Shown here: positions 8,511 through 37,174 of the stretch, one piece after another
How positions within the stretch are numbered: position 1 is the first letter of the stretch
Layout of the letters: each line of letters starts with the position of its first letter
Origin: Acidimicrobiia bacterium
GTDB lineage: Bacteria; Actinomycetota; Acidimicrobiia; Spongiisociales; Spongiisociaceae
DNA length: 64,000 nt
Direction: 5' to 3'
Assembly (NCBI GenBank): GCA_011523635.1
Contig: WTGI01000077.1
Location: 1,006-65,005, forward strand
Program-made: the position numbers and the translations under genes
The notes under the pieces: generated by a model
Seen by the model: the letters and a program-made list of their open reading frames with translations, nothing else
What the model was told of the DNA's origin: nothing
Database searches by the model: none

Positions 8511-9667
8511 AACTCACCCTGGAACGCACGCTGCTGTAGCGAAGCGAACAGCCTGTCGCATCGCCGGGATGAGCGATTGAGGACATCTCGCTGCCGCGCG
8601 ATCATCCTCAAGTAAGACTCGAACTGTCGCTGAAGCTTGAGCGCAGGAATCGGGATCTTGATTTCCTTGAGGATTGCTTGGTTAATCTTGTGTGTCCCGT
8701 TGGTAGTTCGCGCAGCACTCTCGATCTGACGACGAACGATTGGCGTATTCCAGACTCGACTAAGAAAGTCTCGCGAAATCAACTCAGAATCACACCGAGC
8801 AGCGATCATCGTATCAGGAAAGGCGACATCGGGGAGACTTTGTTGTGGATACTTCCCTCGCCCAACCAGAAACAGATTTCCGTTGCCACGACAAATGAGA
8901 AACAGGTCTGCTGAAACTGTCTGCTGCACGACATGAGGCCTAACAAAAGTGCTGTTCTTGACTGCATCTGGATCAAAGGACAAACCAGTAATGGCTGAAA
9001 GGGTTAGTACTCGTCCTGGGAATTCACCTGACGTTGATGGTGACACTCCATTACGCAGTGGTTTCGTCATTAATGTCTCAAACCTTACTTGTCTAAGCGT
9101 CGTTAGATTATCGAACAGGTCGGCAAACACGGCTTCGACGAATCTGTCGAGCTTGGCGAGGGCCTGGCGGCGCTTCGCTCGAAGCGCCTCAGCCGCGTCT
9201 AACACCGCTGCGATACGCCGCTGCTCCTCTAACGCCGGCAAGGAGATAGGAATGTCGGCGACGTACGATGGCCTGGCGCGAAGCAATGATCCTCCGACCC
9301 CTGCGACGGTCTGGATAAAGGCATGATGAAATCGATCGGACACCAGTACATAGCGCAAGTACGCAGGATCGAAGCGATCACTCCGGAAGATGATCCATTC
9401 GCTCGACCCGATGGCCGGCCGATCAGAGCCCAGCTCTACAACCCATGCGCGTCGAATGTGCGGGACAATCTTTGAGAGGAGGACGTCACCGCTCTCAAGC
9501 ACCTGTTTACGGGAGCCGACTTCCCTGCCACTAACGAGCTCGGGCACCTTGGCATCGAATGCTGGGATGCTGAAGAGTTCGAACTCATCATCGGGATTCT
9601 TGCGTGGATCGATGGAACGCGTTCTTGTTGACATCAGTTCACCAAGCGGTACGCTTGCGAAAGTCAT
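8507..9667 (-). CDS. hsdS: Type I RM specificity subunit with two target recognition domains
   Basis: Duplicated TRD architecture with conserved spacer helices (LPALEEQRRIAAVLD ... IPIPALKLQRQFESYL). Overlaps hsdM and hsdR by 4 nt each. Confidence 0.8.
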   Translation of the reverse strand: MTFASVPLGELMSTRTRSIDPRKNPDDEFELFSIPAFDAKVPELVSGREVGSRKQVLESGDVLLSKIVPHIRRAWVVELGSDRPAIGSSEWIIFRSDRFDPAYLRYVLVSDRFHHAFIQTVAGVGGSLLRARPSYVADIPISLPALEEQRRIAAVLDAAEALRAKRRQALAKLDRFVEAVFADLFDNLTTLRQVRFETLMTKPLRNGVSPSTSGEFPGRVLTLSAITGLSFDPDAVKNSTFVRPHVVQQTVSADLFLICRGNGNLFLVGRGKYPQQSLPDVAFPDTMIAARCDSELISRDFLSRVWNTPIVRRQIESAARTTNGTHKINQAILKEIKIPIPALKLQRQFESYLRMIARQRDVLNRSSRRCDRLFASLQQRAFQGEL

Positions 9668-11232
9668 GCCAACATTGCCTTAAGTTCGTCGACGCCTCTT
9701 AGGATTTCTGTCTCCAGGGCTGTGAGTTCGTCGAGGATCTGGGTTGGCGGTGGGTATTCGATTTCGTTGTAGATGATTTCTTTGTAGCGGTTGATGCTGA
9801 GGTCGTAGGCGTTGCTCACGATGTCGGACTTGGGTATGCAGAAGGACTGCTCGGTGCGGACACGTGACATCTCCGTAGTGGTGCGTTTCTGCCAGCGGGC
9901 GAGAACGTCGGGTAGGTTGTTCTTCTCATGCTCTTCATCGGTCAGCTCCCCCTCCGTGAGTACGCCGAGTTTGGCCTCGTCAAGTAGCGGGATGCGCTTG
10001 TCGTCGAGGCTGTAGCCGTCAGCCTCCAAGTCATAAAACCAGACATGGTCGGTGCCGCCAGAGTTGGTCTTGGTGAACAGCAGGATGGCGGTAGAGACCC
10101 CGGCGTAGGGTTTGAACACGCCGGATGGGAGCGAGACGATGCCCTCGAGCTTCTGGTCTTCAACCAGAATACGGCGAAGCTCTTTGTGAGCCTTGGTCGA
10201 GCCGAAGAGTATCCCATCGGGCACAATCACCGCCGCTCTTCCACCGGGTTTGAGGAGTCGCAAGAACAGTGTGAGAAACAGCAGTTCGGTCTTCTTGGTC
10301 TTGACGACCTTCAGGAGGTCCTTCGCTGTGCTCTCGTAGTCGAGCGAGCCTGCGAAGGGCGGGTTGGCCAGGATCAGGCTGTAGGACTCCGTGCCTCCGG
10401 CGTGGTCCTGGGCTAGGGAGTCCCGGTAGCTGATGTTGGGGTTCTGGACTCCGTGGAGCTGCATGTTCATCGACCCGATCCGGAGCATCGTGTTGTCGAA
10501 GTCATAGCCGGTGAACATCGTGCTGTGGAAATGTCGTGCCTTGACTGGGTCGGTCAACGCGATCGGATGTCGGTCACGGATGTGTTCGCCAGCCGCTACT
10601 AGGAACCCGCACGTCCCGCTTGCGGGATCGCAGATAGTGTCGTCTGGTTGGGGGGCGACCATTTCGACCATCAGCCGGATGATGTGGCGCGGGGTACGGA
10701 ACTGGCCGTTTTGCCCGGCTCTGGCGATCTTGGAGAGCATGTACTCGTAGACGTCACCCTTTGTGTCGCGGTCTGTCATCGGGATCGAGTCGAGACCGTC
10801 CACTGCCTTCTGCAGCAGCCCAGGGGTGGGGATCGTGAGACGGGCACCGCGCATGTGTTTGGCGTGAGTGCTCTCCTCCGCCCGCTGGTGCAGGAACGGG
10901 AAGACGTATCTCTCGACTACCTCGAACATGTCGGCCGCGGACATGTGCTTGAACCTCGACCAGCGAAGGTCACTGTACGGTCGGCCGTTGATGAGCCCTT
11001 CAGGCAGGAATTGTTGGCCCTTAGGGAAGATGACCACATCGATCGGCTGGCCGGTTCGGTTCGCTTTGTTCTCGGCGAGTGTCTGGCGTTCGTCGAGGGC
11101 CTTGATGAACAGCAGATAGGTGAGTTGCTCTATCACCTCGAGCGGGTTGGATATGCCACCCGACCAGAAGCTGTGCCAGACAGCGTCGATCTTGTTTCTG
11201 ACCTCACCGGTGAGCATTGGTTCCCACTTCAT
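9664..11232 (-). CDS. hsdM: Type I RM N6-adenine DNA methyltransferase
   Basis: HsdM N-terminal domain, motif I (DPASGTCGFL) and motif IV (NPPF in LILANPPFAGS). Confidence 0.9.
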   Translation of the reverse strand: MKWEPMLTGEVRNKIDAVWHSFWSGGISNPLEVIEQLTYLLFIKALDERQTLAENKANRTGQPIDVVIFPKGQQFLPEGLINGRPYSDLRWSRFKHMSAADMFEVVERYVFPFLHQRAEESTHAKHMRGARLTIPTPGLLQKAVDGLDSIPMTDRDTKGDVYEYMLSKIARAGQNGQFRTPRHIIRLMVEMVAPQPDDTICDPASGTCGFLVAAGEHIRDRHPIALTDPVKARHFHSTMFTGYDFDNTMLRIGSMNMQLHGVQNPNISYRDSLAQDHAGGTESYSLILANPPFAGSLDYESTAKDLLKVVKTKKTELLFLTLFLRLLKPGGRAAVIVPDGILFGSTKAHKELRRILVEDQKLEGIVSLPSGVFKPYAGVSTAILLFTKTNSGGTDHVWFYDLEADGYSLDDKRIPLLDEAKLGVLTEGELTDEEHEKNNLPDVLARWQKRTTTEMSRVRTEQSFCIPKSDIVSNAYDLSINRYKEIIYNEIEYPPPTQILDELTALETEILRGVDELKAMLA

Positions 11233-13432
11233 TCTCCGTTTCGATCATCGCGTTCCTCAAACTGAGGATGCCGGCCACGAGGCCTTCGCGGACCGTATCG
11301 TAGGTGGTGCGGCAAGCTTCGAGTGTCTCGTCGAATTGGGACATCTGCGTCTCGATAGCGGTCAGACAGGCGACGAGGGCTTTCTGTTCTTCGAGGGCTG
11401 GCAGGTGAACTTCGATGTCTTTGAGCGTGTCATGCCTTAGGTTGGCGATGACACTTCCTGTGGCAGCTCCTGCGAGGGCTGCTCTCCCCCGCCTGGATGT
11501 CAGATACAGCCTCAGGTAGTCAGGATCCAAGCGTCTCTGGTCAGGTCGGAGTCTGATCAGCCAGTTCGAGAACGATGCAGGAACATCGAATCTGACTATG
11601 GCGCACGCTACAGATCTGTGGCCATCGATCCCACGCGTCACAAGTAGGAGATCCCCTCGTCGGACCATCCGACCTCGAACATGGCCGAACGTGGACTCAG
11701 CAGGAACGTTGGCCAGGATCGGCTGTCCCTGGATAACCATTCCGGTTGTGACGTACGGCGTCGGATCGCCTTCGCCGCCTTCACGTTGCCGTATGCCAGG
11801 CAACGGATCAGTGATCAACAAGTCACCCAGGCGGTGATGCGAGAAACTTGGGCCATCCACCGGGTCGATTGCCGAGAGTTGCTGCCGGATCGTAGCCTCA
11901 ACTGTCGGGAGAGCCGCCAGACGCTCCTTGACGGTCGTTGTGAGACGTTTCTGCCGGGACCGGATCGGCTCACCGTTGATCTCCGTGATCTTCACCGCGT
12001 ACTGGATGTAGCGACTAGGGCCCAGTGCGCTGCCGTTTGCAACAATCTCGTCGGTGGTGCCGATGCCGCTGAACTGAGCTTCGGGTTCCAGCCGTCCGTC
12101 ACGCCACCGCTGTATCGTCCGTCCGATCTTGACTATCTCGGGTGGCTGGAAGCTACGCACTCCCCCTCTCTCGGGCGTTCCGAGTTGACGAGCATCGAGA
12201 AACAGAACCCTCCCGGCACGATTCACTCGGTCCTTCTGCAGAACCAAGATCGCAGTGGGTATAGACACCGACGTGAGCATCCCCGGCGGGAGGTAGAGGA
12301 CAGCATCCACGTAGTCGGCCTCTAACAGTCCCGTCCGGATTATGACCTCGGAGCGGCCACGTCTCGTCAAAGCGGTGGTCGGGAGCACAACAACTCCGAT
12401 ACCGGAGTCGGCGAGGTGGAACACAACGTGCTGAACCCAAGCAAGGTCAGCGTGCCCCTTCGGAGGTAACCCTAAGAACCACCGGGGATCACCGTCCATC
12501 TGCTCGACCGAGGCGAGACGGAGACCGAACGGAGGTTCGACAGCGATGCGGTCGGCTCTCAACTGCCAGAGACGATCATCGACCATCGTGTCACCGGTCA
12601 CGAGCTGGAAGGACGCGCCCTGCAACAGCAGGTGGAGGAACCCGAGCCTCCAGGTCTGCTCCCTGATCTCTTGACCATAGAGTTGGGTCACCGTATCCGA
12701 ATAGCGTTCCCATGTCGATCCCAGGAAGACAGCTCTGCCACAAGCTGGGTCGTAGACAGTTCCCTCAAGAGGTTCGAGCAAGGCTGTCATGATGTCGACA
12801 AGGCTTGGCCCACTATCGACGTTGCCCGCCTTAGCCCCACGACGCTTGGCGAAGTCTTCGAGGAGGACTGTTGAGGCATCCCCCCAGTCGGTTGAGCGGG
12901 GGTGGAAGTGACCAACAGTTTCGATCAGTCGAGTCCAGTCTGAAGGCCGCAACTGGCTCACAACAGACGACACCCTCAGCGCCCTAGCGAGGTCGGGGTC
13001 CGACATGGTCAGAGCGTCGGCGGTCGAGGAATACACCAGTCCGGGGTCGTTTGCTGCTTCGATCCGGCCCCAGGCACGTGCGAGCGGAGTCAGACGCTCG
13101 TATCGACCGGAAGCTGCCGCGCGCAGGGCGAATAGTTGCAGCAGGACCTCCGGAGTGTCGAACACACCGGGGAGATCGCGCACTGCATACGTAGCCTGTA
13201 ACACCGCACTCTCGATCGAGTCCTGTTCTGGAAGGTGGACACTCTTGCCCGCGGCTCGAAGCCACGCCACGATCTGAGCCCGGTCGAAGAGTCCTTCCTC
13301 AGCTTCTGTCGGGAAGTCCGGGTGGCGACGCTTCCAGTTCGACACCGCAGACGGTCTAACCCCAGCGAGTCTTGCGATCTCGGCACCTGTGATCAGGATC
13401 GGAGTTGATGGGTTTGTATCTGGGACCGTCAT
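11204..13432 (-). CDS. HTH + gamma-class N6-adenine MTase + TRD fusion protein (second, non-canonical M/S polypeptide)
   Basis: N-terminal HTH (ILITGAEIARLAGVRPSAVSNWKRRHPDFP). Motif I (YDPACGRAVFLG) and motif IV (VEPPFG). C-terminal HsdS-like TRD with LPALEEQKALV helix. First gene body of the operon after the NYN gene. Confidence 0.75.
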   Translation of the reverse strand: MTVPDTNPSTPILITGAEIARLAGVRPSAVSNWKRRHPDFPTEAEEGLFDRAQIVAWLRAAGKSVHLPEQDSIESAVLQATYAVRDLPGVFDTPEVLLQLFALRAAASGRYERLTPLARAWGRIEAANDPGLVYSSTADALTMSDPDLARALRVSSVVSQLRPSDWTRLIETVGHFHPRSTDWGDASTVLLEDFAKRRGAKAGNVDSGPSLVDIMTALLEPLEGTVYDPACGRAVFLGSTWERYSDTVTQLYGQEIREQTWRLGFLHLLLQGASFQLVTGDTMVDDRLWQLRADRIAVEPPFGLRLASVEQMDGDPRWFLGLPPKGHADLAWVQHVVFHLADSGIGVVVLPTTALTRRGRSEVIIRTGLLEADYVDAVLYLPPGMLTSVSIPTAILVLQKDRVNRAGRVLFLDARQLGTPERGGVRSFQPPEIVKIGRTIQRWRDGRLEPEAQFSGIGTTDEIVANGSALGPSRYIQYAVKITEINGEPIRSRQKRLTTTVKERLAALPTVEATIRQQLSAIDPVDGPSFSHHRLGDLLITDPLPGIRQREGGEGDPTPYVTTGMVIQGQPILANVPAESTFGHVRGRMVRRGDLLLVTRGIDGHRSVACAIVRFDVPASFSNWLIRLRPDQRRLDPDYLRLYLTSRRGRAALAGAATGSVIANLRHDTLKDIEVHLPALEEQKALVACLTAIETQMSQFDETLEACRTTYDTVREGLVAGILSLRNAMIETENEVGTNAHR

Positions 13433-14152: not shown

Positions 14153-14818
14153 GGCATAAAACCCCAGCTAAAGTATAGTTTTCAGGTCAGTCCCATTCGA
14201 CTGACCCACAGGACACTAGGCATGGGCGGAGCCTTTCCCAGCAGAAACGCCAAGGCGCCCTCGGACTCCGCCCAGCCCGTCACATCCAGCCCCATAGTGG
14301 CACCCGGTGCTGGCGGCCGGCCTCATCCGCTCGCCGAGAATCGCGCACAACGGTGTCAAGGTCGACTTCGGCCCAGACCGCTCCGATCACCTCCCTGAGC
14401 GAACCGCTGTGACTATGGCGAACGATACGGCGAAGTACAGCTTCCGATGGACCGTTGATTGTCGGATCTGCTCTGGGCCATACGGAGACGTTGGGGATTT
14501 CCATAGCAAGCTCGGAGGTGTCCTGGCTCCCCGTTGTTTCGGCAGCGCGGTCAACGCGTCGCCTGCTTGGTTGTCGCGGCGGTATCCTGGGCGACGGCTA
14601 TTCCATGACGGCCGCGATAAGTGGCTGTACTCGTTTGGCTGTCGCCGGGCTGCTGTTCCTCGGGGCGAGGTGCGGTGGCAGTCGCAGATGAGTACCGACG
14701 TTTCCTGACTCGGAGGGCTGGGCTCGCTCTGTGCCTGAAGGCCGGCCAACCGGAATCGTGCTGGAGCACATCGCCATTCCTTGTGACTGATCGGCTCGAT
14801 GACAGATGGCCGTTGGCG

Positions 14819-17752
14819 ATGGCCGTTGGCGTGGATGCTTGCAGAACCGGGAGATACCGTGCCGTGACGAAGTCCGATTCGAAGCAACGTGGCAACATCG
14901 GCACGAGCGCAGTGTCCCTCAAATTCGAACGAGATCTCTTCTGGGGGACCGCGGACAATTCGCGAGATGATCGAGGCATCGACTTCTTTGCGCTGGCTCG
15001 TGACTCGTTGCTGGGCATGCGAGAGATTCCAATCGGGATTCAAGTCAAGACGGGCAAGTCGAGATTCGACAGAGCCAAGCGGCAAGCTGACGGCGACATC
15101 GAGGGCTGGTGGTACGAATCGAGCAAGCAACGCTTCAAGTACTGGGAGGAGTACGGCGTACCCGTACTGCTCGTTCTCCACAACGAGGACGACGATGTCT
15201 CGTTCTGGGTCCACGTTACACAGGACGCGTATGAGTCGACAGGCACGCGTGCCAAGATCCTGGTACCGCGACGTCAGACCATAAGCAAGCTTTGCAAAGA
15301 TCAGCTGCTCCGCATCGCCGACCGACATAGCGCGTCTCTGGCGCTCGAGGGAACAGTCCTCGCGGACAGCCTCGAAGGAGTCCCATCCGAGCGCCGAATG
15401 CGGTACGCGCTCGTCGTCCCCAGATTCATAGCGCCGCCCCCGCACGTGGCCAGAGAGCGCCCGATCGACGCGTGCGAAGCAGTCGCGCTTCTTGCCCAGG
15501 GCGACCTCCGCGTATTGGATGAGATTGTCGACAAGCACGACGAGGTGCCCAGGCCTGAGTCCCTTAACGCAGATGCAAGTTGGGATTGGCAGTTCACCGC
15601 CGCGATCTGGGATTGGTTGGTAAGCCAATCGATAGACAAGCTGAAGAACATCTACGAAACTGCCCCCGAGGGTCACAGCGCGGCTGCGAGTGGTGTGCTG
15701 CTTGCCTGCGCTTTGGGCCGTCGAGAACGCCACGAAGACGCCGTCGCGGTCCTCTATGGACTCATCCGGCGCGGCGATCCTGACGCCCTCGACCGCGCAT
15801 GGGTCCTCGCACAGCGCGCCCGGTGGCACGCTGACCTCGGCAACTTCGATGCCGCCCAATCCGACGCTGCCGATGCGCGCCGATTGCTCGACGGCGTTCA
15901 CAACGACGCCCTAGTCTCCGCGCCCATGGTCTCGGCGCTCCTCGCATCAGCCACACGGACGATGAACGTCATAGCCGCGACGAGGCGCTTTCGAGACCGT
16001 TCCTCGGATGCTGAGTCCACCGACCTGTGGATTGCTGAGCAACAAAAGGCCTACCTTGAACTGTTGAAGGCATCTGACACCACCGTCTCATGGTGGCGCG
16101 CCAGGAACGTTGCCTCAGCATTGGGGCGAGCGCAAGACGCCAACTTCGAGTCATGGGTAGAGGACAACCCACCGCAATACGTAGGCGGAAGTCCAATGCC
16201 AGAAACGAAGCTCTTGGCCGCCGAGTTCAACGCCGACATCACGGGTGAGCATGGGTCCTGGCGAACACTCTCAGCCCGCCGCGGAGTTCAGAACCTCTTA
16301 CGTGCTGCGTCCTTACCCGATACAGCAAGGGAGTTAGGAGAAGGCCTCGACACCGTGCGACGCAGTGGCGACTCGAACCGCTTCACCAAGGCAACTCACC
16401 ACCTACTCAGAACCGGTCCACTAGCGGCCGTTGCTGCCTCGGTCCGGAAGGTCCCCACAGCGGGATGGACCCACACAACAGCGAAGACGAACTTCGACGC
16501 CCTAGCACTAGCAGGGGATCTCATCGACCAATCCGTTGCTGACCAACTGCTCGAACAGTGCGCCCGCGCGGCGTGCGGAGAAACGACAGCGCTTGGCTGC
16601 ATACAAGACGACGGGTACTTCAGCCTTCCCGCGTTTGCTACGGAAGCAGCAGCTGGTGTACTCCCAGCCGCGTCCGCCAGCTCGCACGACAGCTTCACCG
16701 GTTACCTAGCCAAGCTACCGGAAGTCGAGCCAGGCTTCTTCCTTCGTGGTCTTGAACGAGCGCTGTCGTTCTTGGACTACACGCAAATCGGTCAGGAGAA
16801 TCGACGAGGGTTGCTCGCGCTCTCTGAACGAGGACATGCCCAGCTAAGTGCCGCCGTATGGGGCTGGTTCGCGAGTCACGGTGACTCTGCTGCTATACGT
16901 TCGCTCATACGAGCTGCTGCGCAGGGCGACATCTACGCACTCGCCGAAATCGAGGACCCGTCGGTATTCAATGAGTCCGAGAGTGCCGCGCTCATGGACA
17001 CTCTTGCGCAACGTGTAGATCAGGCTCACGCTGACGCCCTCACTGGTGCGGGCAGCAGCTGGAACAGTGCGTTCTGTCATGCGCTCACTCGACTGAATCT
17101 CACGATCCCCAGCAGTGCCCGTTGGGAACCGGTGATCACCCTTCTCGGCGAACCGCGCTCCTTCGTCGAAGACAAGGCCGCTATCTGTAGAGCCCTGGGC
17201 ACCGACGCTCAACAAATACCGGAGGACGTGCGCGATCAACTCGCCGCTCTCGTCGACGTCGCAGCATCGGCGTCGGCCTCGTTCTGGCCAGGTGCAGAAG
17301 CAGCGGGAATCGAGATCAGGCTCAAGATCGCTTTGGCACTAGTCGACGAGAGCGAAACCGACAGAGCCCTTGTTCGACTCGCACTGGGCTCACATCAGGA
17401 ACGTCGAGACGCCTGCTTGATACTACGATCGTCAGCTTGTGCCAGTCGTCGACTGTTACTGGAGTTCCTGTATCGGGACGCCAACTTCACTGTGCGCTAT
17501 CAGGCCGCCCAGACAGTCGCCCACCTTGTTGCCACCGAAGCGAGCGATGCCGACATTGACCTCGCGTGGAAGGTGGTCCGCGACGACGGGCGCCACCTAC
17601 CGATTGCCCTCCTTCAGGGGTTCGCGGCGGCTCCAGGTGTTCCCGCACCGATCGCCCAAGAAATCAGTAACTCCTTTGAGCATCACCCCTCCGCAATAGT
17701 TCGGCACCACGCCGCACAACTTCAGCAACTCTCCTCCGCCGAGCCCCATTAG
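14819..17752 (+). CDS. DUF4365 (PD-(D/E)xK-like) N-terminal domain fused to long alpha-helical HEAT/TPR-like region
   Basis: N-terminus ...GNIGTSAVSLKFERDLFWG...DDRGIDFFAL...IGIQVKTGKSRFD...YWEEYGVPVLLVLHN matches the DUF4365 pattern. Rest is ~800 aa of Ala/Leu-rich helical repeat. Alternative upstream start 14621. Confidence 0.6.
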   Translation: MAVGVDACRTGRYRAVTKSDSKQRGNIGTSAVSLKFERDLFWGTADNSRDDRGIDFFALARDSLLGMREIPIGIQVKTGKSRFDRAKRQADGDIEGWWYESSKQRFKYWEEYGVPVLLVLHNEDDDVSFWVHVTQDAYESTGTRAKILVPRRQTISKLCKDQLLRIADRHSASLALEGTVLADSLEGVPSERRMRYALVVPRFIAPPPHVARERPIDACEAVALLAQGDLRVLDEIVDKHDEVPRPESLNADASWDWQFTAAIWDWLVSQSIDKLKNIYETAPEGHSAAASGVLLACALGRRERHEDAVAVLYGLIRRGDPDALDRAWVLAQRARWHADLGNFDAAQSDAADARRLLDGVHNDALVSAPMVSALLASATRTMNVIAATRRFRDRSSDAESTDLWIAEQQKAYLELLKASDTTVSWWRARNVASALGRAQDANFESWVEDNPPQYVGGSPMPETKLLAAEFNADITGEHGSWRTLSARRGVQNLLRAASLPDTARELGEGLDTVRRSGDSNRFTKATHHLLRTGPLAAVAASVRKVPTAGWTHTTAKTNFDALALAGDLIDQSVADQLLEQCARAACGETTALGCIQDDGYFSLPAFATEAAAGVLPAASASSHDSFTGYLAKLPEVEPGFFLRGLERALSFLDYTQIGQENRRGLLALSERGHAQLSAAVWGWFASHGDSAAIRSLIRAAAQGDIYALAEIEDPSVFNESESAALMDTLAQRVDQAHADALTGAGSSWNSAFCHALTRLNLTIPSSARWEPVITLLGEPRSFVEDKAAICRALGTDAQQIPEDVRDQLAALVDVAASASASFWPGAEAAGIEIRLKIALALVDESETDRALVRLALGSHQERRDACLILRSSACASRRLLLEFLYRDANFTVRYQAAQTVAHLVATEASDADIDLAWKVVRDDGRHLPIALLQGFAAAPGVPAPIAQEISNSFEHHPSAIVRHHAAQLQQLSSAEPH

Positions 17753-21109: not shown

Positions 21110-21305
21110 TAGAGGTTGATCGAGAAGACTCCGTCAACGCACAGCTCAACATTGCGGCCTCGATGTTGGTCCTTCGGAGCGCTTGGTGACAACCAGTTCG
21201 GACGGGTAGATCCTGCACAATCTGCTGGTGGGCGAGAGCCAGAACCCGCCTCTGACCTTGGAGCTTAAGTAGCTATGAAACAGTTAGCGACTAGTAGAAA
21301 CGCTG

Positions 21306-21379
21306 TGGGCCCGGCAGGACTCGAACCTGCAACCAACGGATTATGAGTCCGCTGCTCTGACCGCTTGAGCTACGGGCCC
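21306..21379 (-). tRNA. tRNA-Met (anticodon CAT), 74 nt, CCA not encoded
   Basis: Cloverleaf folded by hand: acceptor gggcccg/cgggccc, D stem gctc/gagc, anticodon stem gcgga/tccgt with loop ctCATaa, T stem gcagg/cctgc with ttcgagt loop. Confidence 0.9.
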
Positions 21380-26177: not shown

Positions 26178-26242
26178 CCAGGAGTCCCGGCAGGTGGGGA
26201 ATGATGCCGAACCTAAACGCGAGAACGGAAAGGGGCCTACTA

Positions 26243-27388
26243 ATGACTCGAAGGCTTGTACCGCTGTTCGTGGTACTTGCGATGGTCGTCGCTTCGTGCG
26301 GAGCGGACGACGAGCCTGCCGCCACTACAGCAGCCCAGGAAACGACTACGGCTGCTACGCAGGCCGCCACCACCCAGCCCGAGGAAGTGGTGGTCGTTCC
26401 CTCGCAAGGCGGCACGCTGGCCGAGATACAGGCCCGCGGTAGCTTGAGATGCGGTGTATCGACCGCCGCTATCGGCTTCGCCGAGCCCCAGGACGACGGT
26501 TCCTACACCGGATTCGACGCCGACTACTGCCGTGCTCTGGCAGCAGCTGTGCTAGGCGATGCCACCGCGGTCGAGTTCGTGGGCACCACCGCCGCCGAGC
26601 GCTTCAACGTGCTCGCCGCCGGCGAGGTCGACGTGCTGTTCCGTAACACCACCTGGACCCAGAGCCGGGATACGGAGATCGGCGGTGACTTCGGGCCCAC
26701 CACGTTCTACGACGGCCAGCAGATCATGGGCAAGGCCGACTTCGGATTCACCGATGCCTCTACTCTGGTGGACGTGGACGGCGCCAGGCTCTGCACCAAC
26801 GCCGGAACCACCACCGAGAAGAACATCACGGAGGGCGCCCGCGTGGTCGGCGCCGAGATCGAGCTGGTGACCGTGGAGAACTTCCCGGAGGCCATGGATC
26901 TCTTCCGGGCGGGTTCCTGTGACCTGGTGACCACCGACGGCTCGGCCCTGTTCGGCCATCGCTACGCCGCCATCCAGAACGGTGAGATCGCCGAGGGAGA
27001 CTGGATCATCTTCCCGACCACCCCGATCTCCAAGGAGCCCCTCGGGCCCATGTACCGCCAGAACGACAGCCAATGGGCTGATGTCGTCAACTGGTTGGTG
27101 TACATCCTGATCATCGCCGATGAGAAGGGGGTCACCTCCCAGAACATCGACGAGATGGTGGCGAACCCGCCCGACCCCGAAGCGGGTCGCTTCCTCGGCG
27201 TGGGCGAGGACGAGCTGCAGACCAAGATGGGTCTCGCGGCTGACGCATATGCCCAGGCCATCAGGCAGGTCGGCAACTACGACGAGATCTACGCCAACAA
27301 CCTGCACCCGCTCGGGTTCGCCCGAGCCGGGTCCGCCAATGCCCGCTGGACCGAGGGCGGTCTGGTCTACGCACCACCGGCCCGGTAG
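26243..27388 (+). CDS. amino-acid ABC transporter substrate-binding lipoprotein (family 3 SBP)
   Basis: Signal peptide plus lipobox (VVLAMVVASCG). SBP_bac_3-like body. RBS AAAGGGG before ATG 26243. Confidence 0.8.
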   Translation: MTRRLVPLFVVLAMVVASCGADDEPAATTAAQETTTAATQAATTQPEEVVVVPSQGGTLAEIQARGSLRCGVSTAAIGFAEPQDDGSYTGFDADYCRALAAAVLGDATAVEFVGTTAAERFNVLAAGEVDVLFRNTTWTQSRDTEIGGDFGPTTFYDGQQIMGKADFGFTDASTLVDVDGARLCTNAGTTTEKNITEGARVVGAEIELVTVENFPEAMDLFRAGSCDLVTTDGSALFGHRYAAIQNGEIAEGDWIIFPTTPISKEPLGPMYRQNDSQWADVVNWLVYILIIADEKGVTSQNIDEMVANPPDPEAGRFLGVGEDELQTKMGLAADAYAQAIRQVGNYDEIYANNLHPLGFARAGSANARWTEGGLVYAPPAR

Positions 27389-27447
27389 AAACCAAGTAGA
27401 TCCGAATCAAGGAGGGGGCGCCGATCAGGTGCCCCCTCCTCGCGTAG

Positions 27448-29040
27448 TTGGTATCGTCTGGGAGGCCGGCTAGAACGGAAGGTCAATTGGTCACGCCCAC
27501 CGACCGCTCCTCTCAGACCCGCGTGCCCATATGGCGCAACGTGGTCGTCATCAAATGGGCCACCCAACTCGGAATCCTCGTCGGCCTCCTCTGGCTGGGT
27601 TACGTCGTCATCACCCAGGCCACCGCCAATCTCCGGGCTACCGGCATCCCGTTCTCGTGGGACTTCCTCGGCGAACCACTGGGCGTCAAACTCGGCGAGG
27701 GGTTCAACACCGATCCCGAGTCGGGCCTGGAGGCGCTGGCGGTGGGAATGGTCAACATGTTGAGGGTCACCTGGAGCGGTGTCATCGCCGCCACCATCCT
27801 CGGCACGGTGATCGGGATTTCGAGGCTGTCGTCCAACTGGATCGTCTCGCGGATCGCCAACGCCTACATCGAGTTCTTCCGCAACATCCCGCTGCTCGTC
27901 CAGATCCTCTTCTGGCAGGCGCTGATCGTCGGGCTCCTGCCGGATCTGACCCCCGAGATGGAGGGGTCCCGATGGCTGTTCGCCAGCCCCAAGGGCATCG
28001 CCATGCCCTGGCTCACCCCCCTGGCCGGCCGCTGGCAGTACACCGTGGTGCTGATCGTCGGCGTGGTGGCGGCGCGCTGGGTGTACCGGCGCCGGATCGC
28101 GCTCCAGGAGCGAGAGGGGCACGATACCCACGCCTTCGCTTGGTCGATCGGCACTTTCGCCGTCTTCCTGGTGGGAGGATGGTTCGCCCATCCCGCCGCC
28201 GGAGTATTGGGATGGCTGTTCACCGCCCTCGCCTGGGTGGCCGGGGTCGTACCGGTGATCGGTCTCCAGCTGGTGCTGGCCGCCCTCGCTGTCTCGTTGG
28301 CAGCCCGCTACATCGTGCGTTACCTGAGGCGGCTCCGGTCGCCCGCCGGTATGGCCAAACTCTCCGACGACGACTACTTCCGCCTGGCAGTGGCGGCCGT
28401 GGTGGGTATCGGGGTGATGCTGTTCTTCGTATCCGGGGCCGGGCAGGCAACCCTATCCAGTGTTCTGGGACGGACGCTCTGGTACCAGATGAACTGGGGA
28501 TTCGAGCCGCTCTTCGACTTCCTGGCGTCAAGGTTCGACTTTGCCGGCGGCGCCCCCCTGCGCTTCACCCTTCCCGAGGTGGTGGTGCCCACCAGGTTCC
28601 CCCAGTACTCCCACGAGGTCGGTAAGGCGCTCACACCGGGCTTCATGGCGGTCTGGATGGGAGTCACGCTCTACACCGCCGCCTTCATCGCCGAGATCGT
28701 GCGGGCCGGGATCATGGCCGTGCCGCGCGGTCAGGGCGAGGCCGCCGCGGCGGTCGGTCTGCGCCGGGGCCAGGTGCTGCGCCTGGTCGTGCTGCCCCAG
28801 GCCTTCCGGATCATCCTTCCCCCGCTCGGTTCCCAGTACCTGAACCTGGCCAAGAACACCTCCTTGGGTATCGCCGTGGCCTACGCCGACATCGTCCAGG
28901 TCGGCCAGACCATCTTCAACCAGGAAGGCCAGGCATTGGCGGTGTTCATCTTCTGGATGGGCTTCTACTCGCTCGTGAGCCTGATCCTGTCGGGCATCGT
29001 GAACTACTACAACCGCAAGATGGCCCTGGTGGAGCGCTGA
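27448..29040 (+). CDS. amino-acid ABC transporter permease (AapQ-like) with long N-terminal extension
   Basis: C-terminal EAA-loop region ...EAAAAVGLRRGQVLRLVVLPQAFRIILPPLGSQYLNLAKNTSL typical of polar amino-acid permeases. Exact start uncertain (CTG/TTG/GTG candidates). Confidence 0.75.
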   Translation: MVSSGRPARTEGQLVTPTDRSSQTRVPIWRNVVVIKWATQLGILVGLLWLGYVVITQATANLRATGIPFSWDFLGEPLGVKLGEGFNTDPESGLEALAVGMVNMLRVTWSGVIAATILGTVIGISRLSSNWIVSRIANAYIEFFRNIPLLVQILFWQALIVGLLPDLTPEMEGSRWLFASPKGIAMPWLTPLAGRWQYTVVLIVGVVAARWVYRRRIALQEREGHDTHAFAWSIGTFAVFLVGGWFAHPAAGVLGWLFTALAWVAGVVPVIGLQLVLAALAVSLAARYIVRYLRRLRSPAGMAKLSDDDYFRLAVAAVVGIGVMLFFVSGAGQATLSSVLGRTLWYQMNWGFEPLFDFLASRFDFAGGAPLRFTLPEVVVPTRFPQYSHEVGKALTPGFMAVWMGVTLYTAAFIAEIVRAGIMAVPRGQGEAAAAVGLRRGQVLRLVVLPQAFRIILPPLGSQYLNLAKNTSLGIAVAYADIVQVGQTIFNQEGQALAVFIFWMGFYSLVSLILSGIVNYYNRKMALVER

Positions 29041-29041
29041 T

Positions 29042-31528
29042 ATGACCGACCCCGCATCCGCCGGCGTTGCCGCCGACATGACCGAGCGGGCTCCCGAGCC
29101 CCCACCCACCGGGCCGTGGCGCTGGATGCGCGAGAACCTCTTCTCGGGCCACACCTGGGGACAGATCGCCTTCAACTCCTTCCTCACCCTGGCCTTCGCC
29201 CTGGTGCTCCTGAACATCCTGCGGTTCATCACCTCTTACCTCTTCGCTCCGGAACGCAAATGGGCGGCGGTCACCCACAATGCGAAGCTGCTGATGGTCC
29301 AGGCCTTCCCGCAGGACGACCTGATCCGGATCTGGACGTCCCTGGGCATATTCATCGTCCTGGTGGTCTGGTCACTGGCGTCCTGGAAGGTGGGAGGACG
29401 GCTCGAGCTCACCACCTTCGCGGGAGGTGTGAGGAGCGGCGCCGTGCTGGTGGCGGTGACGGCGATCATGCACCATGCGGCCGAGGCGCGCACATTCGGC
29501 ATTCCCATCCTGGCATTCGACTCGCCCGCCGCCTGGAGCAACGTACGTGCCTGGATACTCCTCGCCGCCGTCCTGGTGGCCGTCCTGGCCCACTTCGCCG
29601 TCCGGTGGAGCCGCGCCGCCACCCCGTCGCCCACGATCCCGCTGCTGACCGTGCCGGTGATGGTCATGGCGGCGGTGGCCGCGCTCCTATGGACCGTGGA
29701 ACTCCCGGTTCCGTTGGGCCAGTTCGACCAGACCACCGCACCGATAGCCGCCACCACCGCGGGCCCGTGGACGACTCTGTTCGTCCTGGCGGTGGCCGCC
29801 TACCCCCTCGGGATCCTGATCGAGCGCATCTGGCCCCGCGCCTTCCGGCGGTTCCTGATCTCGGCCTGGGTCCTCTCCTATCCGGTGATCATCTTCATCA
29901 TCCAGCGCAACCCGGTCCTCGACTGGACCGACATGATCCTGCTACTGGGCATAGTGCTGGGCGCCGGCGCGCTCCGGGTGCTGGTCGCTCTGCCCAGAGG
30001 GCCGACCGGCGCCGCGGTGGCGGCAGCCATCGGGCTGGTGATAGCCGCCCTGCCACTCGCTTCCGCAGAGGAGCCGCTCTGGGTCGCGGTGGGGTTGGTG
30101 CTGGTCGGGGTGGCGACGCTTATCACCGCCCTGACGATCAAGGAGCCGGTGGTGATGGTCAGGGCGTCGGCTGCGGGCCTGGTCCTGGCCAGCCTGTTGG
30201 TCTGGCTCGTCTCGATGCCGTTCCTGTTCCGGGTGCTGGTCACTGCCTTCACCCTGTTCCTGCTCGTAGCGCCCGCCGTCGGACGAACGCAACGGGGCAG
30301 GACCAACCTGGTCCGGGTCTGGGTAGCGGCCACGGTGGTGGCGGTGGTGGCGGTCCGGCTGGGAGCCACGTTCGACGACGGCTCGAGCCTGACCGCCTTC
30401 CTGCGCTCGGATGTGGTCTCCATCCTCCTGGCAGTCGTACTGGGTGGCGGCGCGCTCTGGGTTCTGGGCCTCCCGCCCAGAGGGTATGCCTCGAGCGCGG
30501 TGGTGGCGGCCATCGGGCTGGCGGCGGCCGCCCTGCCGTTCGCCTCCGGGGAGGAGCCGCTCTGGCTCACCGTGGGGTTGGTGCTAGTCGGCCTGGCGAT
30601 ACTGGCCGCCGCCCTCACGATCAAGGAGCCGGTGGAGATGGTTCGCGCATCGGCTGCAGGCCTGGCGGTGGTATGCCTGTCGATCTGGTTCATCCCGATG
30701 CCGTTCCTCTACCGCACCCTGATCGTCTCCTTCACCCTGTTCCTGCTGGTGACACCCACCTTCGGAGGAACGCAGCGGGGAAGGACCAACCTGGTCCGAG
30801 CCTGGACAGCCGTTGCGGTGCTGATAGTGGTGGGATTCCGGCTGGGCGCTGCCAGCACATCCCTCGAGTTCCAGGGAACCACCTTCCTGGGCGGTTTCAA
30901 CCTGACCATCCTCCTGGCCGTCAGCGGCATCGCCCTGTCCCTTCCCGTCGGCCTGATCCTCGCCCTGGCGCGAACCTCCTCGATGCCCATCTTCCGCCTG
31001 CTGGCCACCGGATACATCGAACTGGTCCGGAGCGTGCCGATGATCACCTGGCTGTTCTTCGGCTCGGCCATGCTGACCGCCTTCCTTCCCGCCGGAGTGG
31101 AGTTCGACGAGATCGTGCGGATAGTCGCGGCCATCACCATCTTCAACTCGGCCTACGTGGCCGAGAACATCAGGGGAGGATTGCAGGCCATCGACCGGGG
31201 CCAGTACGAGGCGGCCAGGGCTGCGGGCCTGAGCATCGTCCAGTCCACCTCGCTGGTGATCCTGCCCCAAGCGGTGCGGACGGTGATCCCGGCGCTGGTC
31301 GGGTCGATCATCGTCGCCTTCAAGGACACCTCGCTGGTGGCCATAATCGGGCTGGCAGACATCCTGCTGATCGCTCGCAGCTTTATACCCCAGCAGAGCG
31401 ACCCCAACTTCCAGGGCACCCTGCCCCAGATGATGTTCTTCATGGCGTTGTTCTACTGGATAGTCACCTTCACGATCTCGAAGCTGAGCATGCGCTACGA
31501 GCGCAGTCTCGGTCTTGGAGAACGCTGA
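29042..31528 (+). CDS. amino-acid ABC transporter permease (AapM-like) with ~550-aa N-terminal membrane extension containing a tandem duplication
   Basis: C-terminal ...[43 protein letters not shown] is a permease EAA loop. The N-terminal half has many TM segments and two ~161-aa repeats. Confidence 0.75.
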
Positions 31529-31553
31529 TGGCCGAATCACTGAGGAGGATTTC

Positions 31554-32297
31554 ATGACCACTAACGGATCTCAGGCGATCATCTGCGAGGACGTAAAGAA
31601 GTGGTTCGGTGACTTCCAGGCTCTGAGCGGGGTGAGCACCTCGATCGGCTGGGGCGAGGTGGTGGTGGTGATCGGACCTTCCGGGTCCGGCAAGTCCACC
31701 TTCATCCGTTGCATCAACCGCCTCGAGGCCCACCAGGCGGGGCGGATCGTTGTGGACGGGATGGAGCTGACCAACGACCTCCGCAACATCGACGCCATCC
31801 GCCGCGAGGTCGGCATGGTCTTCCAGCAGTTCAACCTGTTCCCCCACCTCACGGTCATGCAGAACATCACCCTGGCGCCCATCTGGGCCCGAAACCGGAC
31901 GCGGTCGGATTCCGAGGCCGCCGCCATGAAGCTGCTCGAGCGGGTGGGCATACCAGAGCAGGCGCACAAGTATCCGGGCCAACTATCGGGAGGCCAGCAA
32001 CAGCGGGTGGCCATAGCCCGCGCCCTGGCCATGAACCCGAAGATCATGCTCTTCGACGAGCCCACCTCGGCGCTCGACCCCGAGATGATCAAAGAGGTCC
32101 TAGATGTGATGAAGGAGCTGGCCGAGTCGGGCATGACGATGATCGTGGTCACCCACGAAATGGGTTTCGCCCGCGAAGTCGCCGATCGGGTGCTCTTCTT
32201 CGACTACGGGATGGTTGTGGAAGAAGGAACTCCGGAGCACTTCTTCCACAACCCCCAGCACGACCGCACCAAGCTGTTCCTCAGCCAAATCCTTTAG
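31554..32297 (+). CDS. amino-acid ABC transporter ATP-binding protein
   Basis: Walker [13 protein letters not shown] signature [15 protein letters not shown], Walker [22 protein letters not shown] before ATG 31554. Confidence 0.9.
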
Positions 32298-34052: not shown

Positions 34053-34952
34053 CTAATAGTACCGGGGGAAGCGTGAGAAGTCCTTCGGACGCTTCTCCAC
34101 GAAGGCATCCCGCCCCTCTTGGGCCTCTTCGGTCATGTAGCCGAGGCGGGTGGCCTCGCCGGCGAAGACCTGCTGGCCCACCAGACCATCATCGATCAGG
34201 TTGAAGGCAAACTTGAGCATCCGCTGTGACATGGGGCTCTTGGCGTTGATGACCCCGGCCCACTCCAGCGCGGTCTCCTCCAGTTCCGCATGGGGCACCA
34301 CCTTGTTGACCATCCCCATACGAAAAGCTTCGGTGGCCGAGTAGTCGGCGCCCAGGAAGAAGATCTCGCGGGCCCGCTTCTGGCCGACCATGCGGGTCAG
34401 GTAGGCCGAGCCGAACCCGGCGTCGAACGAGGCCACATCGGAGTCGGTCTGCTTGAAGACGGCGTGCTCCTCCGAAGCCAGGGTCAGGTCGCAGACCACG
34501 TGGAGGCTGTGGCCACCCCCGACCGCCCAACCCGGCACGACCGCGATGACCACCTTCGGCATGAACCGGATCAGGCGCTGGACCTCGAGGACGTGGAGCC
34601 TTCCGAGACGCGCCGGGTCGATGTCGGCGGCGCCTTCACCCTCGGCGTACATGTAACCGGCCCGACCGCGAATGCGCTGGTCCCCGCCCGACGAGAAGGC
34701 CCAACCACCGTCCTTGGGAGACGGGCCGTTCCCGGTAACCAGGACAGTCCCCACGTCGCTCCACTGCCGGGCGTGATCGAGGGCGACATAGAGCTCGTCC
34801 ACCGTCTGCGGCCGGAAGGCATTACGCACCTCCGGTCGGTCGAAAGCCACCCGGACCGTTCCCTGATCGACCGCCCGGTGGTAGGTGATGTCGTCGAAGG
34901 AGAAGCCCTCTACGGGGTGCCAGGCATCGGGGTCGAACAGCTCGGAGACCAT
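34053..34952 (-). CDS. menB: 1,4-dihydroxy-2-naphthoyl-CoA synthase
   Basis: Crotonase fold with MenB signature ...FSSGGDQRIRG...GWAVGGGHSLHVVCDLTLAS...EGRDAFVEKRPKDFSRFPRYY. Confidence 0.85.
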   Translation of the reverse strand: MVSELFDPDAWHPVEGFSFDDITYHRAVDQGTVRVAFDRPEVRNAFRPQTVDELYVALDHARQWSDVGTVLVTGNGPSPKDGGWAFSSGGDQRIRGRAGYMYAEGEGAADIDPARLGRLHVLEVQRLIRFMPKVVIAVVPGWAVGGGHSLHVVCDLTLASEEHAVFKQTDSDVASFDAGFGSAYLTRMVGQKRAREIFFLGADYSATEAFRMGMVNKVVPHAELEETALEWAGVINAKSPMSQRMLKFAFNLIDDGLVGQQVFAGEATRLGYMTEEAQEGRDAFVEKRPKDFSRFPRYY

Positions 34953-35869
34953 CAGGAGCGCGGCATGTCGCTCGGGGCGCCGGCGCAGCAGGCGACCTCC
35001 GGACCGTATGCCGCCACCGCGGCCGCCCGGTCATCCTGATTCTGGTACTGGGGGGTGTCGTGACGGGGGGTGCGATGGTCCTCCGGTCGCAGCGCTTCTT
35101 CCTTCCATGGCGCGGGCCACGTGTAACCCAAGTCCACGATCCCCGGCCGGTCCATGGTCTCGAACAGGGCCAGGGCGTCGCGCATGATCGACCGCTGCTC
35201 CCCGGGCCGGTCAGGCGGCCCGCAGGTGTGTCCTAGCGGGAAGTCGGTGAAAGCCGCCCGAGGCGGGTTGGCCGACGCGGTGATGGAGCGCGCGCTGGTC
35301 ATGGACAGGGTGGGGACGCCCTTCCGCTCGATCGCCCTGCTGACCAGCCCAACTGACTGGTGGCATACCGGTCAGACGGGTACCAGCAGCACCGCGTCCG
35401 CCCCCATTTCGAGGGTACGGTCCACCAATACCGGGATCAACTCGGAGGCCAGCCGGCGCTGCGAGTAGATGCCGCCCATGAAGGTGAGCGCCAGCGGTGC
35501 CAGCTCCCCCACAGTGCCCTCGGCGACCAGATAGCGAAGGGTGTCGATCGGGAAGACCACGTTTGGATCCCGCCGGGCGGCGGCCGGATCGAAGGCGAAG
35601 TGAGTCACCCGGAGCTCGGTGCTGTCCACGTCGGTGGGGATCTCCCGGTGGGTCACGTCATCTCGATGGGTGAAGGCCACTTGCCCGTGCCGGTAGATCC
35701 CACCGGATGCGATCAACCCCAACCGGGCTTCCGAGAGCGGTTTGCCGAGCGTGGCCCACGAAGGCGGGTCATCGTTTAGGGCCCAGCGGTAGGGCCGGTA
35801 GCCCAGGCGGGTGTAGGTCTCCCTGGTTACGGCGATGTAGTCGATCGGTCGGCGGTCGGACTCGGCCAT
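34952..35869 (-). CDS. candidate selenoprotein (GrdB/PrdB-like reductase family?) with in-frame TGA (Sec) at 35372-35374
   Basis: ORFs 35372-36088 and 34952-35302 are in the same frame, separated by a single TGA. Read-through gives ...ADAVLLVPV-U-PVCHQSVG... (UxxC). Stop overlaps the menB start (ATGA). Start chosen at ATG 35869; the ORF opens at 36088. Confidence 0.45.
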
Positions 35870-35974: not shown

Positions 35975-36862
35975 GTGTGGAAGATTCCGGAGCCGAGTTC
36001 GGTGCATGGTGTTCGTCTGGAGGACGGCACCCAGGTCACCCTGCGCCGCCATGGGAAAGCGTCGGGCCAGCGGCTCGTTCTGAGCCACGGCAACGGGCTG
36101 GCCATTGATCTTTATTTACCATTCTGGTCGTTACTTGCCGAAGATTTTGACCTTATACTCTACGATTTGAGGAACCATGGGTGGAACGAGACAGGATCTT
36201 TGAGAGCCCACACCATACCTACGTTTATTAAGGATCATGATAAAATTCTAGAGGCTATTGATGAGACCTTTGGACAGAAACCGAAGATAGGCGTCTTCCA
36301 TTCCTTGTCCGGCCTGGTAAGCCTGCTCTCATCTACAAGAGGTAGCGGCTTCGCGGCACGGTTCCTGCTGGATCCACCCCTGTGCACTCCTGGCAGAAGC
36401 TACGAGGAGTTCGACATAGCCGCTACCCGGACGGCCGCCATCGCACGCCGTCGTTCCGACCGGTTCCGCTCTTACGATGAGTTCGTGGGGCTTCTCGGCT
36501 TCTCGCCCGTCTTCCGTCACGTTGTACCGGGTGTCCTCGATCTGATGGCGAGGACCACTCTCCGTGAAGACGGTACCGGCGACACGTACAGCCTTAGATG
36601 CCCCCGGGAATATGAGGCACAGATAATCGACTACGCAAGCTCGTATTCGGTGCTTGTGGACTTCAACGATCTCGAGTGCCCGACCAAGGTCTTAGGAGCT
36701 GACCCCTTGGTACCGTACTCATACCTGCCCACACTCGACCTCAGCGACATGCTGAGTGTCGACTACGACTTCCTTCCGGAAGCCACCCACTTTCTTCCGC
36801 TCGAACAGCCAGAGCAGTGCGCGGCGATAGTACGCGACTACATCAACTCGATTAGTTTCTAG
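35975..36862 (+). CDS. alpha/beta-hydrolase fold protein
   Basis: HGNG oxyanion region (LVLSHGNGLA) and nucleophile elbow GVFHSLSGL. Contains a local AT-rich codon patch (36100-36300). Confidence 0.7.
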   Translation: MWKIPEPSSVHGVRLEDGTQVTLRRHGKASGQRLVLSHGNGLAIDLYLPFWSLLAEDFDLILYDLRNHGWNETGSLRAHTIPTFIKDHDKILEAIDETFGQKPKIGVFHSLSGLVSLLSSTRGSGFAARFLLDPPLCTPGRSYEEFDIAATRTAAIARRRSDRFRSYDEFVGLLGFSPVFRHVVPGVLDLMARTTLREDGTGDTYSLRCPREYEAQIIDYASSYSVLVDFNDLECPTKVLGADPLVPYSYLPTLDLSDMLSVDYDFLPEATHFLPLEQPEQCAAIVRDYINSISF

Positions 36863-36895: not shown

Positions 36896-36935
36896 ACTAG
36901 CAACTAGCAACTAGCAACTAGCAACTAGCAACTAG
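36896..36935. repeat. tandem heptamer repeat (ACTAGCA)x5
   Basis: actagcaactagcaactagcaactagcaactagcaactagg between convergent genes. Same motif at 42118, 49846 and 57615/57688. Confidence 0.8.
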
Positions 36936-37174
36936 GAATTGCTGTCGATAAAGGCTGCGACATCCTTCAACGTGTCCAACGCGTAGCAGTCCTCAACAGC
37001 AAACTCCACACCGAACTCTGCAGAAATCAGCTTCGCCAGGGCAACGGCCTCCAGGGAGGACACACCGGAGTTCATGAGGCTGATGTTCAGATCGTCCGGG
37101 ATGTCCAGCTTCTGGCCATCAACCTCGATGTTCTCGTTGACCAGACTGGTGAGCCGTTCGGCAGTTGAAGCCAT
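36932..37174 (-). CDS. acyl-carrier-protein-like (phosphopantetheine-binding) small protein
   Basis: 80-aa acidic four-helix-type protein with the serine in ...LMNSGVSSLEAVAL... at the expected PP-binding position. Confidence 0.55.
   Translation of the reverse strand: MASTAERLTSLVNENIEVDGQKLDIPDDLNISLMNSGVSSLEAVALAKLISAEFGVEFAVEDCYALDTLKDVAAFIDSNS

Follow-up and report, generated by a model that had tools for sequence, protein, structure and literature searches.

In the D-proline reductase of Clostridia, PrdA and PrdB are encoded in one gene cluster, and PrdB works on a substrate that is attached to the pyruvoyl group of its partner PrdA (PMC11229817). A family listed as "Proline reductase PrdB, pfam07355, UxxC" ranked third in abundance among the selenoprotein families of the Sargasso Sea (Zhang et al. 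2005, PMC1088965), the PrdB family was among the most abundant in the Global Ocean Sampling (GOS) data, with selenocysteine (Sec) in 235 forms and Cys in 110 (Zhang and Gladyshev 2008, PMC2398784), and selenoproteins called "proline reductase" were recorded for Anaeromyxobacter and Geobacter in a 2006 survey (PMC1794560). Here we examine a candidate relative from an Acidimicrobiia bacterium, carried on the minus strand of a 64,000-nucleotide stretch of contig WTGI01000077.1, which we call the window. Our comparisons make it very probable that positions 34952–35869 are a single gene encoding a selenoprotein of 305 residues in the GRDB family (PF07355), stand-alone and PrdB-like, in which an in-frame UGA is read as Sec.

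A single reading frame interrupted by one UGA

The frame runs from ATG 35869 to a stop at 34954–34952 and contains TGA 35374–35372 as its sole internal stop. Reading through this codon gives a conceptual product of 305 residues including Sec, ...GADAVLLVPV-U-PVCHQSVGLVSRAIERKG..., which agrees with the original prediction of two same-frame open reading frames (ORFs) divided by a single TGA, and the U-x-x-C motif that it placed after GADAVLLVPV reads U-P-V-C. Public gene callers also start the N-terminal ORF at ATG 35869, with a product of 165 aa. From the TGA to ATG 35302 (that is, up to residue 190) there is no in-frame ATG, GTG or TTG, and the 23 codons between the TGA and this first ATG, PVCHQSVGLVSRAIERKGVPTLS, hold the invariant P-x-C-H-Q motif of the family, so the conserved PVCHQ stretch is not translatable from a start of its own. 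Matches in related genomes from translated nucleotide searches (tblastn) cover residues 1–304.

Coding continues past the TGA. The open frame after it extends for 130–140 codons in all 21 sequences examined (the window and loci L001–L020), and when the window was compared with 14 increasingly distant loci, the ratio of nonsynonymous to synonymous substitution rates (dN/dS) was 0.11–0.36 after the TGA and 0.10–0.32 before it. By this measure, the 139 codons 3' of the TGA are under purifying selection. The genetic code is not reassigned, because TGA serves as the ordinary stop in 17 of the 53 gene calls in the window. These rough calls, which are crude, end in 32 TAG, 17 TGA and 4 TAA codons in a genome of 64% GC, a composition at which TGA is usually the commonest stop. 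When the window was scanned for further TGA codons joining same-frame ORFs, the only finds were antisense shadows of dnaK, rpoB and rpoC.

Homologues and the codon at the Sec position

Matches among the 5.8 billion proteins searched fell into two classes. Proteins of the first class are 165–200 aa long, 60–92% identical to the window protein, and all end in ...LLVPV, while those of the second are 290–315 aa long, 41–53% identical, and read on through the junction as VPV-C-PVCHQ... or, in a few cases, as VPV-T-PVCHQ. Thr at the Sec/Cys position was seen in the full-length proteins P0006, P0017 and P0021 (VPV-T-PVCHQ or VPI-T-PVCHQ), each of which keeps the second Cys; as judged from their sequences, these three homologues would be without the Sec/Cys redox pair.

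Among the best 80 loci from species-representative genomes, the codon is TGA followed by PVCHQ in 79 and TAG in the remaining one. These loci span Acidimicrobiia, Anaerolineales, Deltaproteobacteria/Deferrimicrobium, Pseudomonadales, Binatia, Entotheonella, Methylomirabilota, Gemmatimonadota, Verrucomicrobiales and Acidobacteriota. The closest belong to sponge-associated Ca. Spongiisocius/Spongiisociaceae (86–92% amino-acid identity); a literature search on Ca. Spongiisocius found nothing. A metagenome scan seeded with Cys forms added 71 loci, with TGA in 64, TGC in six and TGT in one. Homologues that stop at this position, or that carry neither Sec nor Cys there, had been named at the outset as grounds for giving up the original prediction; what we found was TGA at exactly the same codon in 143 of the 151 combined loci (at least eight phyla), TGC or TGT in seven and TAG in one, together with the full-length Cys forms.

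The single TAG occurs in Blastococcus tunisiensis DSM 46838 (NZ_FOND01000003.1, L065:10493–10495), where the downstream hairpin described below is intact (7/7 pairs) and a 136-codon frame follows the TAG. A published account (PMC5330540, citing Mukai et al. 2016) reports that in Geodermatophilaceae the tRNA(Sec) has the anticodon CUA and the selenoprotein genes have TAG where Sec is encoded; it gives Blastococcus saxobsidens DD2 as a documented Sec-TAG case, and formate dehydrogenase (FDH), a UGSC-motif protein and AhpC as the UAG-Sec selenoproteins reported for the family. The Blastococcus TAG thus follows the Sec codon of its lineage, which provides independent support for Sec at residue 166. 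If UAG is Sec in B. tunisiensis, the PrdB-like protein joins the UAG-Sec selenoproteins of the Geodermatophilaceae.

A conserved hairpin downstream of the UGA

The original prediction had also pointed to a small potential hairpin immediately 3' of the TGA (CCAGUCAGUUGGGCUGG). It proved to be the core of a 19-nt stem-loop that is conserved, covaries and fits the bacterial selenocysteine insertion sequence (bSECIS) model. Between the UGA and the stem lie 10 nt, and between the UGA and the loop 17 nt. On its own, the 19-nt hairpin folds with a free energy of −8.9 kcal/mol (z = −3.07), and none of 200 shuffles folded equally well. Longer single-sequence folds gave no signal (z = −0.37 for 81 nt and −0.52 for 40 nt), so single-sequence thermodynamics alone could not settle the SECIS question.

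Comparison among loci was more informative. The RNAalifold consensus of 81 sequences is exactly the 19-nt hairpin, and all seven of its pairs are kept in 128 of the 143 TGA loci, against only three or four of seven in the seven Cys-codon loci, where the peptide over the hairpin region varies freely (HQTMSML, HQAAAIV, HQSACIV). Pairs were counted among 127 distinct TGA sequences. Pair 18:34 is UA in 78, CG in 35, UG in three and mismatched in 11. Pair 21:31 is GC in 120 and AU in seven with no mismatch, a change from CAG/CUG to CAA/UUG at two synonymous sites. At pair 22:30, the clade with HQSVGL after the UGA has U-A or U-G and the HQTVS/HQTVC clade has A-U, a swap that costs two amino-acid changes. 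A second Sec clade (L085–L112, L124, L127 and L137) has HQTVSL, HQTVCL or HQTGCL after the UGA rather than HQSVGL. As read from these alignments, its peptide is altered so that the RNA stem is kept, with U22-A30 inverted to A-U.

Codon choice in the 3' arm follows the same pattern. The Gly codon there is GGC in 0 of 105 sequences, whereas GGC makes up 47% of the Gly codons in the rest of these genes (Fisher p = 8e-29), and the Leu codon is NTG in 126 of 126 against 52% elsewhere (p = 1e-35). The p-values take no account of shared ancestry and set an upper limit on significance. The pattern is nonetheless seen repeatedly, in different clades.

The published bSECIS model calls for a loop of 3–9 nt, an upper stem of 4–16 bp, a G in the first two loop positions, a spacing of 16–37 nt and a minimum free energy (MFE) of at most −7.5 kcal/mol (PMC13188914 Fig. 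2A). The hairpin falls within every one of these limits, with a loop of 5 nt, a stem of 7 bp, G as the second loop base (then U), a spacing of 17 nt and an MFE of −8.9 kcal/mol. The lower stem varies by clade, and the upper 7-bp stem-loop alone is universal.

We conclude that the UGA at residue 166 is very probably decoded as Sec, with the stem-loop acting as a bacterial SECIS. The hairpin would recruit SelB with Sec-tRNA(Sec) to a ribosome paused at the UGA, and translation would then proceed over another 139 codons up to the true stop, next to the start of menB. The presence of SelB is implied because the hairpin is still selected within the clade (a C-G pair in the window versus U-A in L009, L012 and L013). 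We infer from the sequence that SelB, SelA, SelD and selC are encoded elsewhere in the genome.

Family assignment and proposed chemistry

Profile searches used the fused protein with Cys in place of the internal stop. Pfam GRDB (PF07355) matched residues 43–162 with 35.6 bits against a gathering cut-off of 22, and the NCBIfam PrdB model TIGR04483 matched residues 35–244, thus across residue 166, with an E-value of 2.3e-43 and 148.4 bits, below its equivalog cut-off of 300 bits. GrdB-type models gave 47–57 bits, all under their own cut-offs; for the protein B models TIGR01918/TIGR01917 the score was 51.4 bits against a cut-off of 65.45, for a protein of 305 aa with the motif U-P-V-C-H-Q-S. Positions 17–226 of TIGR04483 align with residues 35–244 with no net indel, and this places Sec166 near model position 148, a correspondence drawn from the model alignment and not from an authentic PrdB sequence.

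By these profile scores, the protein is a member of the GRDB superfamily that lies nearer PrdB than GrdB and is the equivalog of neither subunit. The comparison of the concatenated product with GrdB and PrdB profiles, which had been proposed along with the original prediction, gave a positive result in TIGR04483 and in PF07355, the latter above threshold. The accompanying claim of a GrdB/PrdB-type domain held, with a correction: the family match does cross the TGA, but the protein scores below the curated PrdB and GrdB cut-offs, and PrdB is the closer of the two.

For the structure we relied on the AlphaFold model of a Cys homologue, P0004, which is 52% identical to the window protein. The model has an alpha/beta fold (predicted local distance difference test [pLDDT] 92.7, predicted template modeling score [pTM] 0.93), in which Cys167, the Sec equivalent, and Cys170 lie between beta-strand 160–164 and the N-terminus of helix 168–183. 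A pair placed between a strand and a helix N-terminus is the usual geometry of a redox-active CxxC. Neither a sequence search nor Foldseek found a solved structure for the family.

Sec166 and Cys169 of the U-P-V-C motif, at the N-terminus of a helix, probably form the corresponding redox pair in the window protein. Following the pattern of PrdB in D-proline reductase, Sec166 would attack the substrate, and the adduct would be resolved as a selenenyl-sulfide that is re-reduced by a thiol reductant. By this analogy, the chemistry is probably a Sec/Cys selenenyl-sulfide cycle. The substrate is probably not D-proline, since no PrdA-type pyruvoyl partner is found nearby, and we suggest that the stand-alone PrdB-like clade is likely an autonomous selenoenzyme acting on some other substrate.

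Alternative explanations

Public annotation treats the locus as two genes, with the UGA as a true stop that ends a 165-aa GRDB-domain protein and with ATG 35302 as the start of a separate 116-aa protein. Public calls of a 165-aa ORF and a 77-aa ORF, and the many database entries of 165–200 aa ending in LLVPV, fit such an arrangement. It would leave the 23 codons from the TGA to the first ATG without a start, yet these carry the invariant P-x-C-H-Q; full-length Cys homologues are colinear over the junction, and frame and length after the TGA are kept in 21 of 21 sequences with dN/dS there below 0.4 in 14 loci. We consider two genes exceedingly unlikely. A Cys codon (TGC or TGT) mutated to, or misread as, TGA in a decaying gene would need a change of only one base, and the window comes from a metagenome assembly of an uncultured lineage. 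However, the TGA recurs in 143 independent loci of several phyla, closed chromosomes included, both halves are under purifying selection, and a dedicated hairpin accompanies the TGA and is absent with TGC or TGT, so we give a pseudogene or sequencing error next to no credence. The preference of the original prediction for a selenoprotein over these two explanations is thus upheld, as both are contradicted by the cross-phylum TGA, the downstream purifying selection and the lack of an internal start.

Read-through of the UGA might also occur without Sec, either by near-cognate insertion of Trp or Cys or by SelB-independent read-through stimulated by the hairpin. Downstream hairpins can stimulate stop codon read-through in other systems, and the 64-kb window holds none of the Sec machinery that we infer for the genome. 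Several observations speak against this possibility: homologues align a Cys, which is the classical partner of Sec, with the UGA; the hairpin fits the SelB-type bSECIS model (PMC13188914); the prototype PrdB is described as a selenoenzyme in the Clostridium sticklandii work cited in PMC1088965; Clostridioides difficile PrdB needs Sec151 for activity, its U151C variant being inactive (PMC11229817); and the codon is TAG precisely where, according to PMC5330540, the tRNA(Sec) of the lineage reads UAG. We regard read-through without Sec as highly unlikely.

Some points nevertheless weigh against Sec decoding and the chemistry proposed for it. ARAGORN found no tRNA-Sec in the 64-kb window or in the first 80 fetched loci, and no selA, selB or selD was recognised among the scanned window ORFs; for the ORFs at 1–21 kb and the ribosomal/rpo block, the assessment used ORF size and the N-terminal sequence alone. 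No Rfam family matched the hairpin site at either the gathering or a permissive threshold; to our knowledge, bacterial SECIS elements are generally not captured in Rfam. The support for Sec in the PrdB-like clade comes from sequence comparison, and the covariation and codon counts were taken from related sequences, so their p-values overstate independence. The proposed chemistry draws on the PrdB analogy, yet the PrdA partner is missing nearby and the scores lie under the PrdB and GrdB cut-offs. We retain a single selenoprotein gene with UGA read as Sec as the preferred reading: as far as comparison among loci can establish them, the Sec codon, the hairpin, selection on both, and the pairing of Sec with Cys are features of this family.

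Gene neighborhood and the menB junction

Table 1. Predicted features of the PrdB-like selenoprotein locus and the adjoining menB gene (window positions).
Feature	Position	Strand	Remarks
PrdB-like selenoprotein gene, complete (predicted)	34952..35869	-	305 codons including Sec166, plus terminal TGA stop
Predicted Sec codon UGA (residue 166)	35372..35374	-	codon comparison across homologous loci
N-terminal part, residues 1–165	35375..35869	-	in public annotation, a shortened GRDB-domain protein of 165–197 aa
C-terminal part, residues 167–305	34955..35371	-	would be made only by UGA read-through; homologous to the C-terminal half of Cys forms
Putative U-P-V-C redox motif (Sec166, Pro, Val, Cys169)	35363..35374	-	P167, C169, H170 and Q171 invariant in 47 sequences
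Putative SECIS hairpin	35343..35361	-	19 nt, ACCAGUC-AGUUG-GGCUGGU: 7-bp stem, 5-nt apical loop AGUUG (35350–35354)
menB (1,4-dihydroxy-2-naphthoyl-CoA synthase)	34053..34952	-	downstream neighbor; NF006186, 571 bits against a cut-off of 378
TGATG junction	34950..34954	-	stop TGA 34952–34954 and menB ATG 34950–34952 share base 34952

The selenoprotein gene is followed directly by menB (Table 1). The gene had been expected to encode 305 aa and to end in an ATGA overlap with menB; the length and the overlap itself were borne out, but the junction (...TCC-TGA-TGG...) is a TGATG overlap of 1 nt, not a 4-nt ATGA. This TGATG arrangement was found only in the nearest relatives (L001–L006), while menB lies downstream in the Acidimicrobiia relatives L001–L012 and L016, with a short intervening ORF in L012. 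We found no Shine-Dalgarno-like motif upstream of menB, and since its start also sits on the last base of the selenoprotein stop, menB may depend on Sec read-through. Such selenium-gated coupling, in which menB translation requires ribosomes to have read past the Sec-UGA, 420 nt upstream, is in our estimate unlikely; if true, menaquinone synthesis in these sponge-associated Acidimicrobiia would be linked to the supply of selenium.

In the window, a divergent alpha/beta hydrolase gene lies upstream, and the selenoprotein gene is followed in order by menB, an NfeD-like gene and an SPFH-family gene. The hydrolase gene (35975–36862, plus strand), directly on the upstream side, is conserved in the nearest relatives, as is an ORF further along that side for an 80-aa phosphopantetheine-binding carrier protein (36932–37174, minus strand). 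Convergent to the SPFH-NfeD-menB-selenoprotein block is a polar-amino-acid ABC transporter operon (26201–32297, plus strand), which comprises an SBP_bac_3 binding protein, a GlnQ/EhuA-like ATPase and two permeases that are unusually long (530 and 828 aa). Where close relatives have enough flanking DNA, most of them show synteny for the ATPase and the 828-aa permease (L002, L005 and L007–L009).

Other clades have other neighbors, which we identified by eye as either an rRNA methyltransferase with an AAA ATPase and PEP carboxylase, or PntAB with SerA and an acyl-CoA synthetase. In a Pfam survey of 140 immediate neighbor ORFs from 78 genome loci, no family occurred in more than 13, the most frequent being ECH, a small methyltransferase, MFS and PntB, and the neighbors surveyed included no PrdA, GrdE, GrdA or thioredoxin partner. 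Given the variable neighbors and the lack of PrdA, we treat the protein as a stand-alone PrdB-like selenoprotein.

At the far end of the window, the first ~20 kb has a third-position GC of 0.64–0.83 (mostly ~0.7) versus 0.8–0.9 in the rest. This region contains very large ORFs (5100–8510, 9664–13432 and 14621–17752) and ends beside a tRNA-Met gene (21305–21379). Positions 1–21400 may be an island acquired at the tRNA gene.

Comparison with known selenoproteins

Public calls on L161–L164, DNA with an identical menB, split the selenoprotein into a GRDB ORF of 165–175 aa and a 77-aa ORF. The same split affects hundreds of database entries, and dozens of the best protein matches are cut short likewise, so the family is systematically mis-annotated. 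Recognising the Sec codon would restore the 305-residue protein and mark the organism as a selenium user. It also draws attention to a PrdB-like clade that ranks with the most abundant selenoprotein families of ocean metagenomes (PMC2398784) and occurs without the PrdA partner that defines proline reductase. The set of 143 Sec forms, seven Cys forms and one UAG form gives the family a clean SECIS model that experiments can test. Our current understanding of selenoprotein biology is unchanged by this result, which is expected biology; its new elements are the sponge-associated Acidimicrobiia lineage near Ca. Spongiisocius, a menB overlap of 1 nt, and the explicit analysis of SECIS covariation and codon bias.

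The putative SECIS resembles the fdhF-type element of Escherichia coli and the bSECISearch consensus in being a stem-loop within the coding region just past the UGA, with a small apical loop containing G-U, a spacing within 16–37 nt and an MFE below −7.5 kcal/mol (PMC13188914 Fig. 2A). It differs from the fdhF-type element in its unrelated sequence and its clade-dependent lower stem, and a bulged U was not identified.

Of the characterized proteins, PrdB of C. difficile and C. sticklandii is the nearest, as it provides the best curated model, is colinear over 210 residues and, as the window gene would, carries its SECIS within the gene. Sec151 of C. difficile PrdB (PMC11229817) falls near the position of Sec166 (~148 in the model), a correspondence placed via the model. 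In contrast to PrdB, which has ~240 residues, the window protein reaches 305 through a C-terminal extension; no PrdA, PrdH or PrdC is encoded near it, and the hosts here are mostly aerobes, not Stickland fermenters. The GrdB/GrdF/GrdH proteins (TIGR01917, TIGR01918, NF040794 and NF040795) belong to the same Pfam family, and the C-terminal third of GrdB aligns with residues 45–200, including the Sec region. GrdB itself is ~430 aa long with a U-x-x-C-x-x-C motif (PMC13188914), whereas the window protein has U-P-V-C-H-Q-S with no third Cys, and its gene has no grdA, grdE or grdC nearby.

The closest match overall is the marine "Proline reductase PrdB" family, which shares the Pfam domain and the U-x-x-C motif, has more Sec than Cys forms, and is found in aerobes from marine and environmental sources; our deltaproteobacterial loci likewise agree with the "proline reductase" selenoproteins of Anaeromyxobacter and Geobacter (PMC1794560). 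We see no essential difference from this marine family, to which the window gene appears to belong. On the sequence comparisons presented here, the gene is a further, ordinary member of a PrdB/GrdB selenoprotein family known since 2005.

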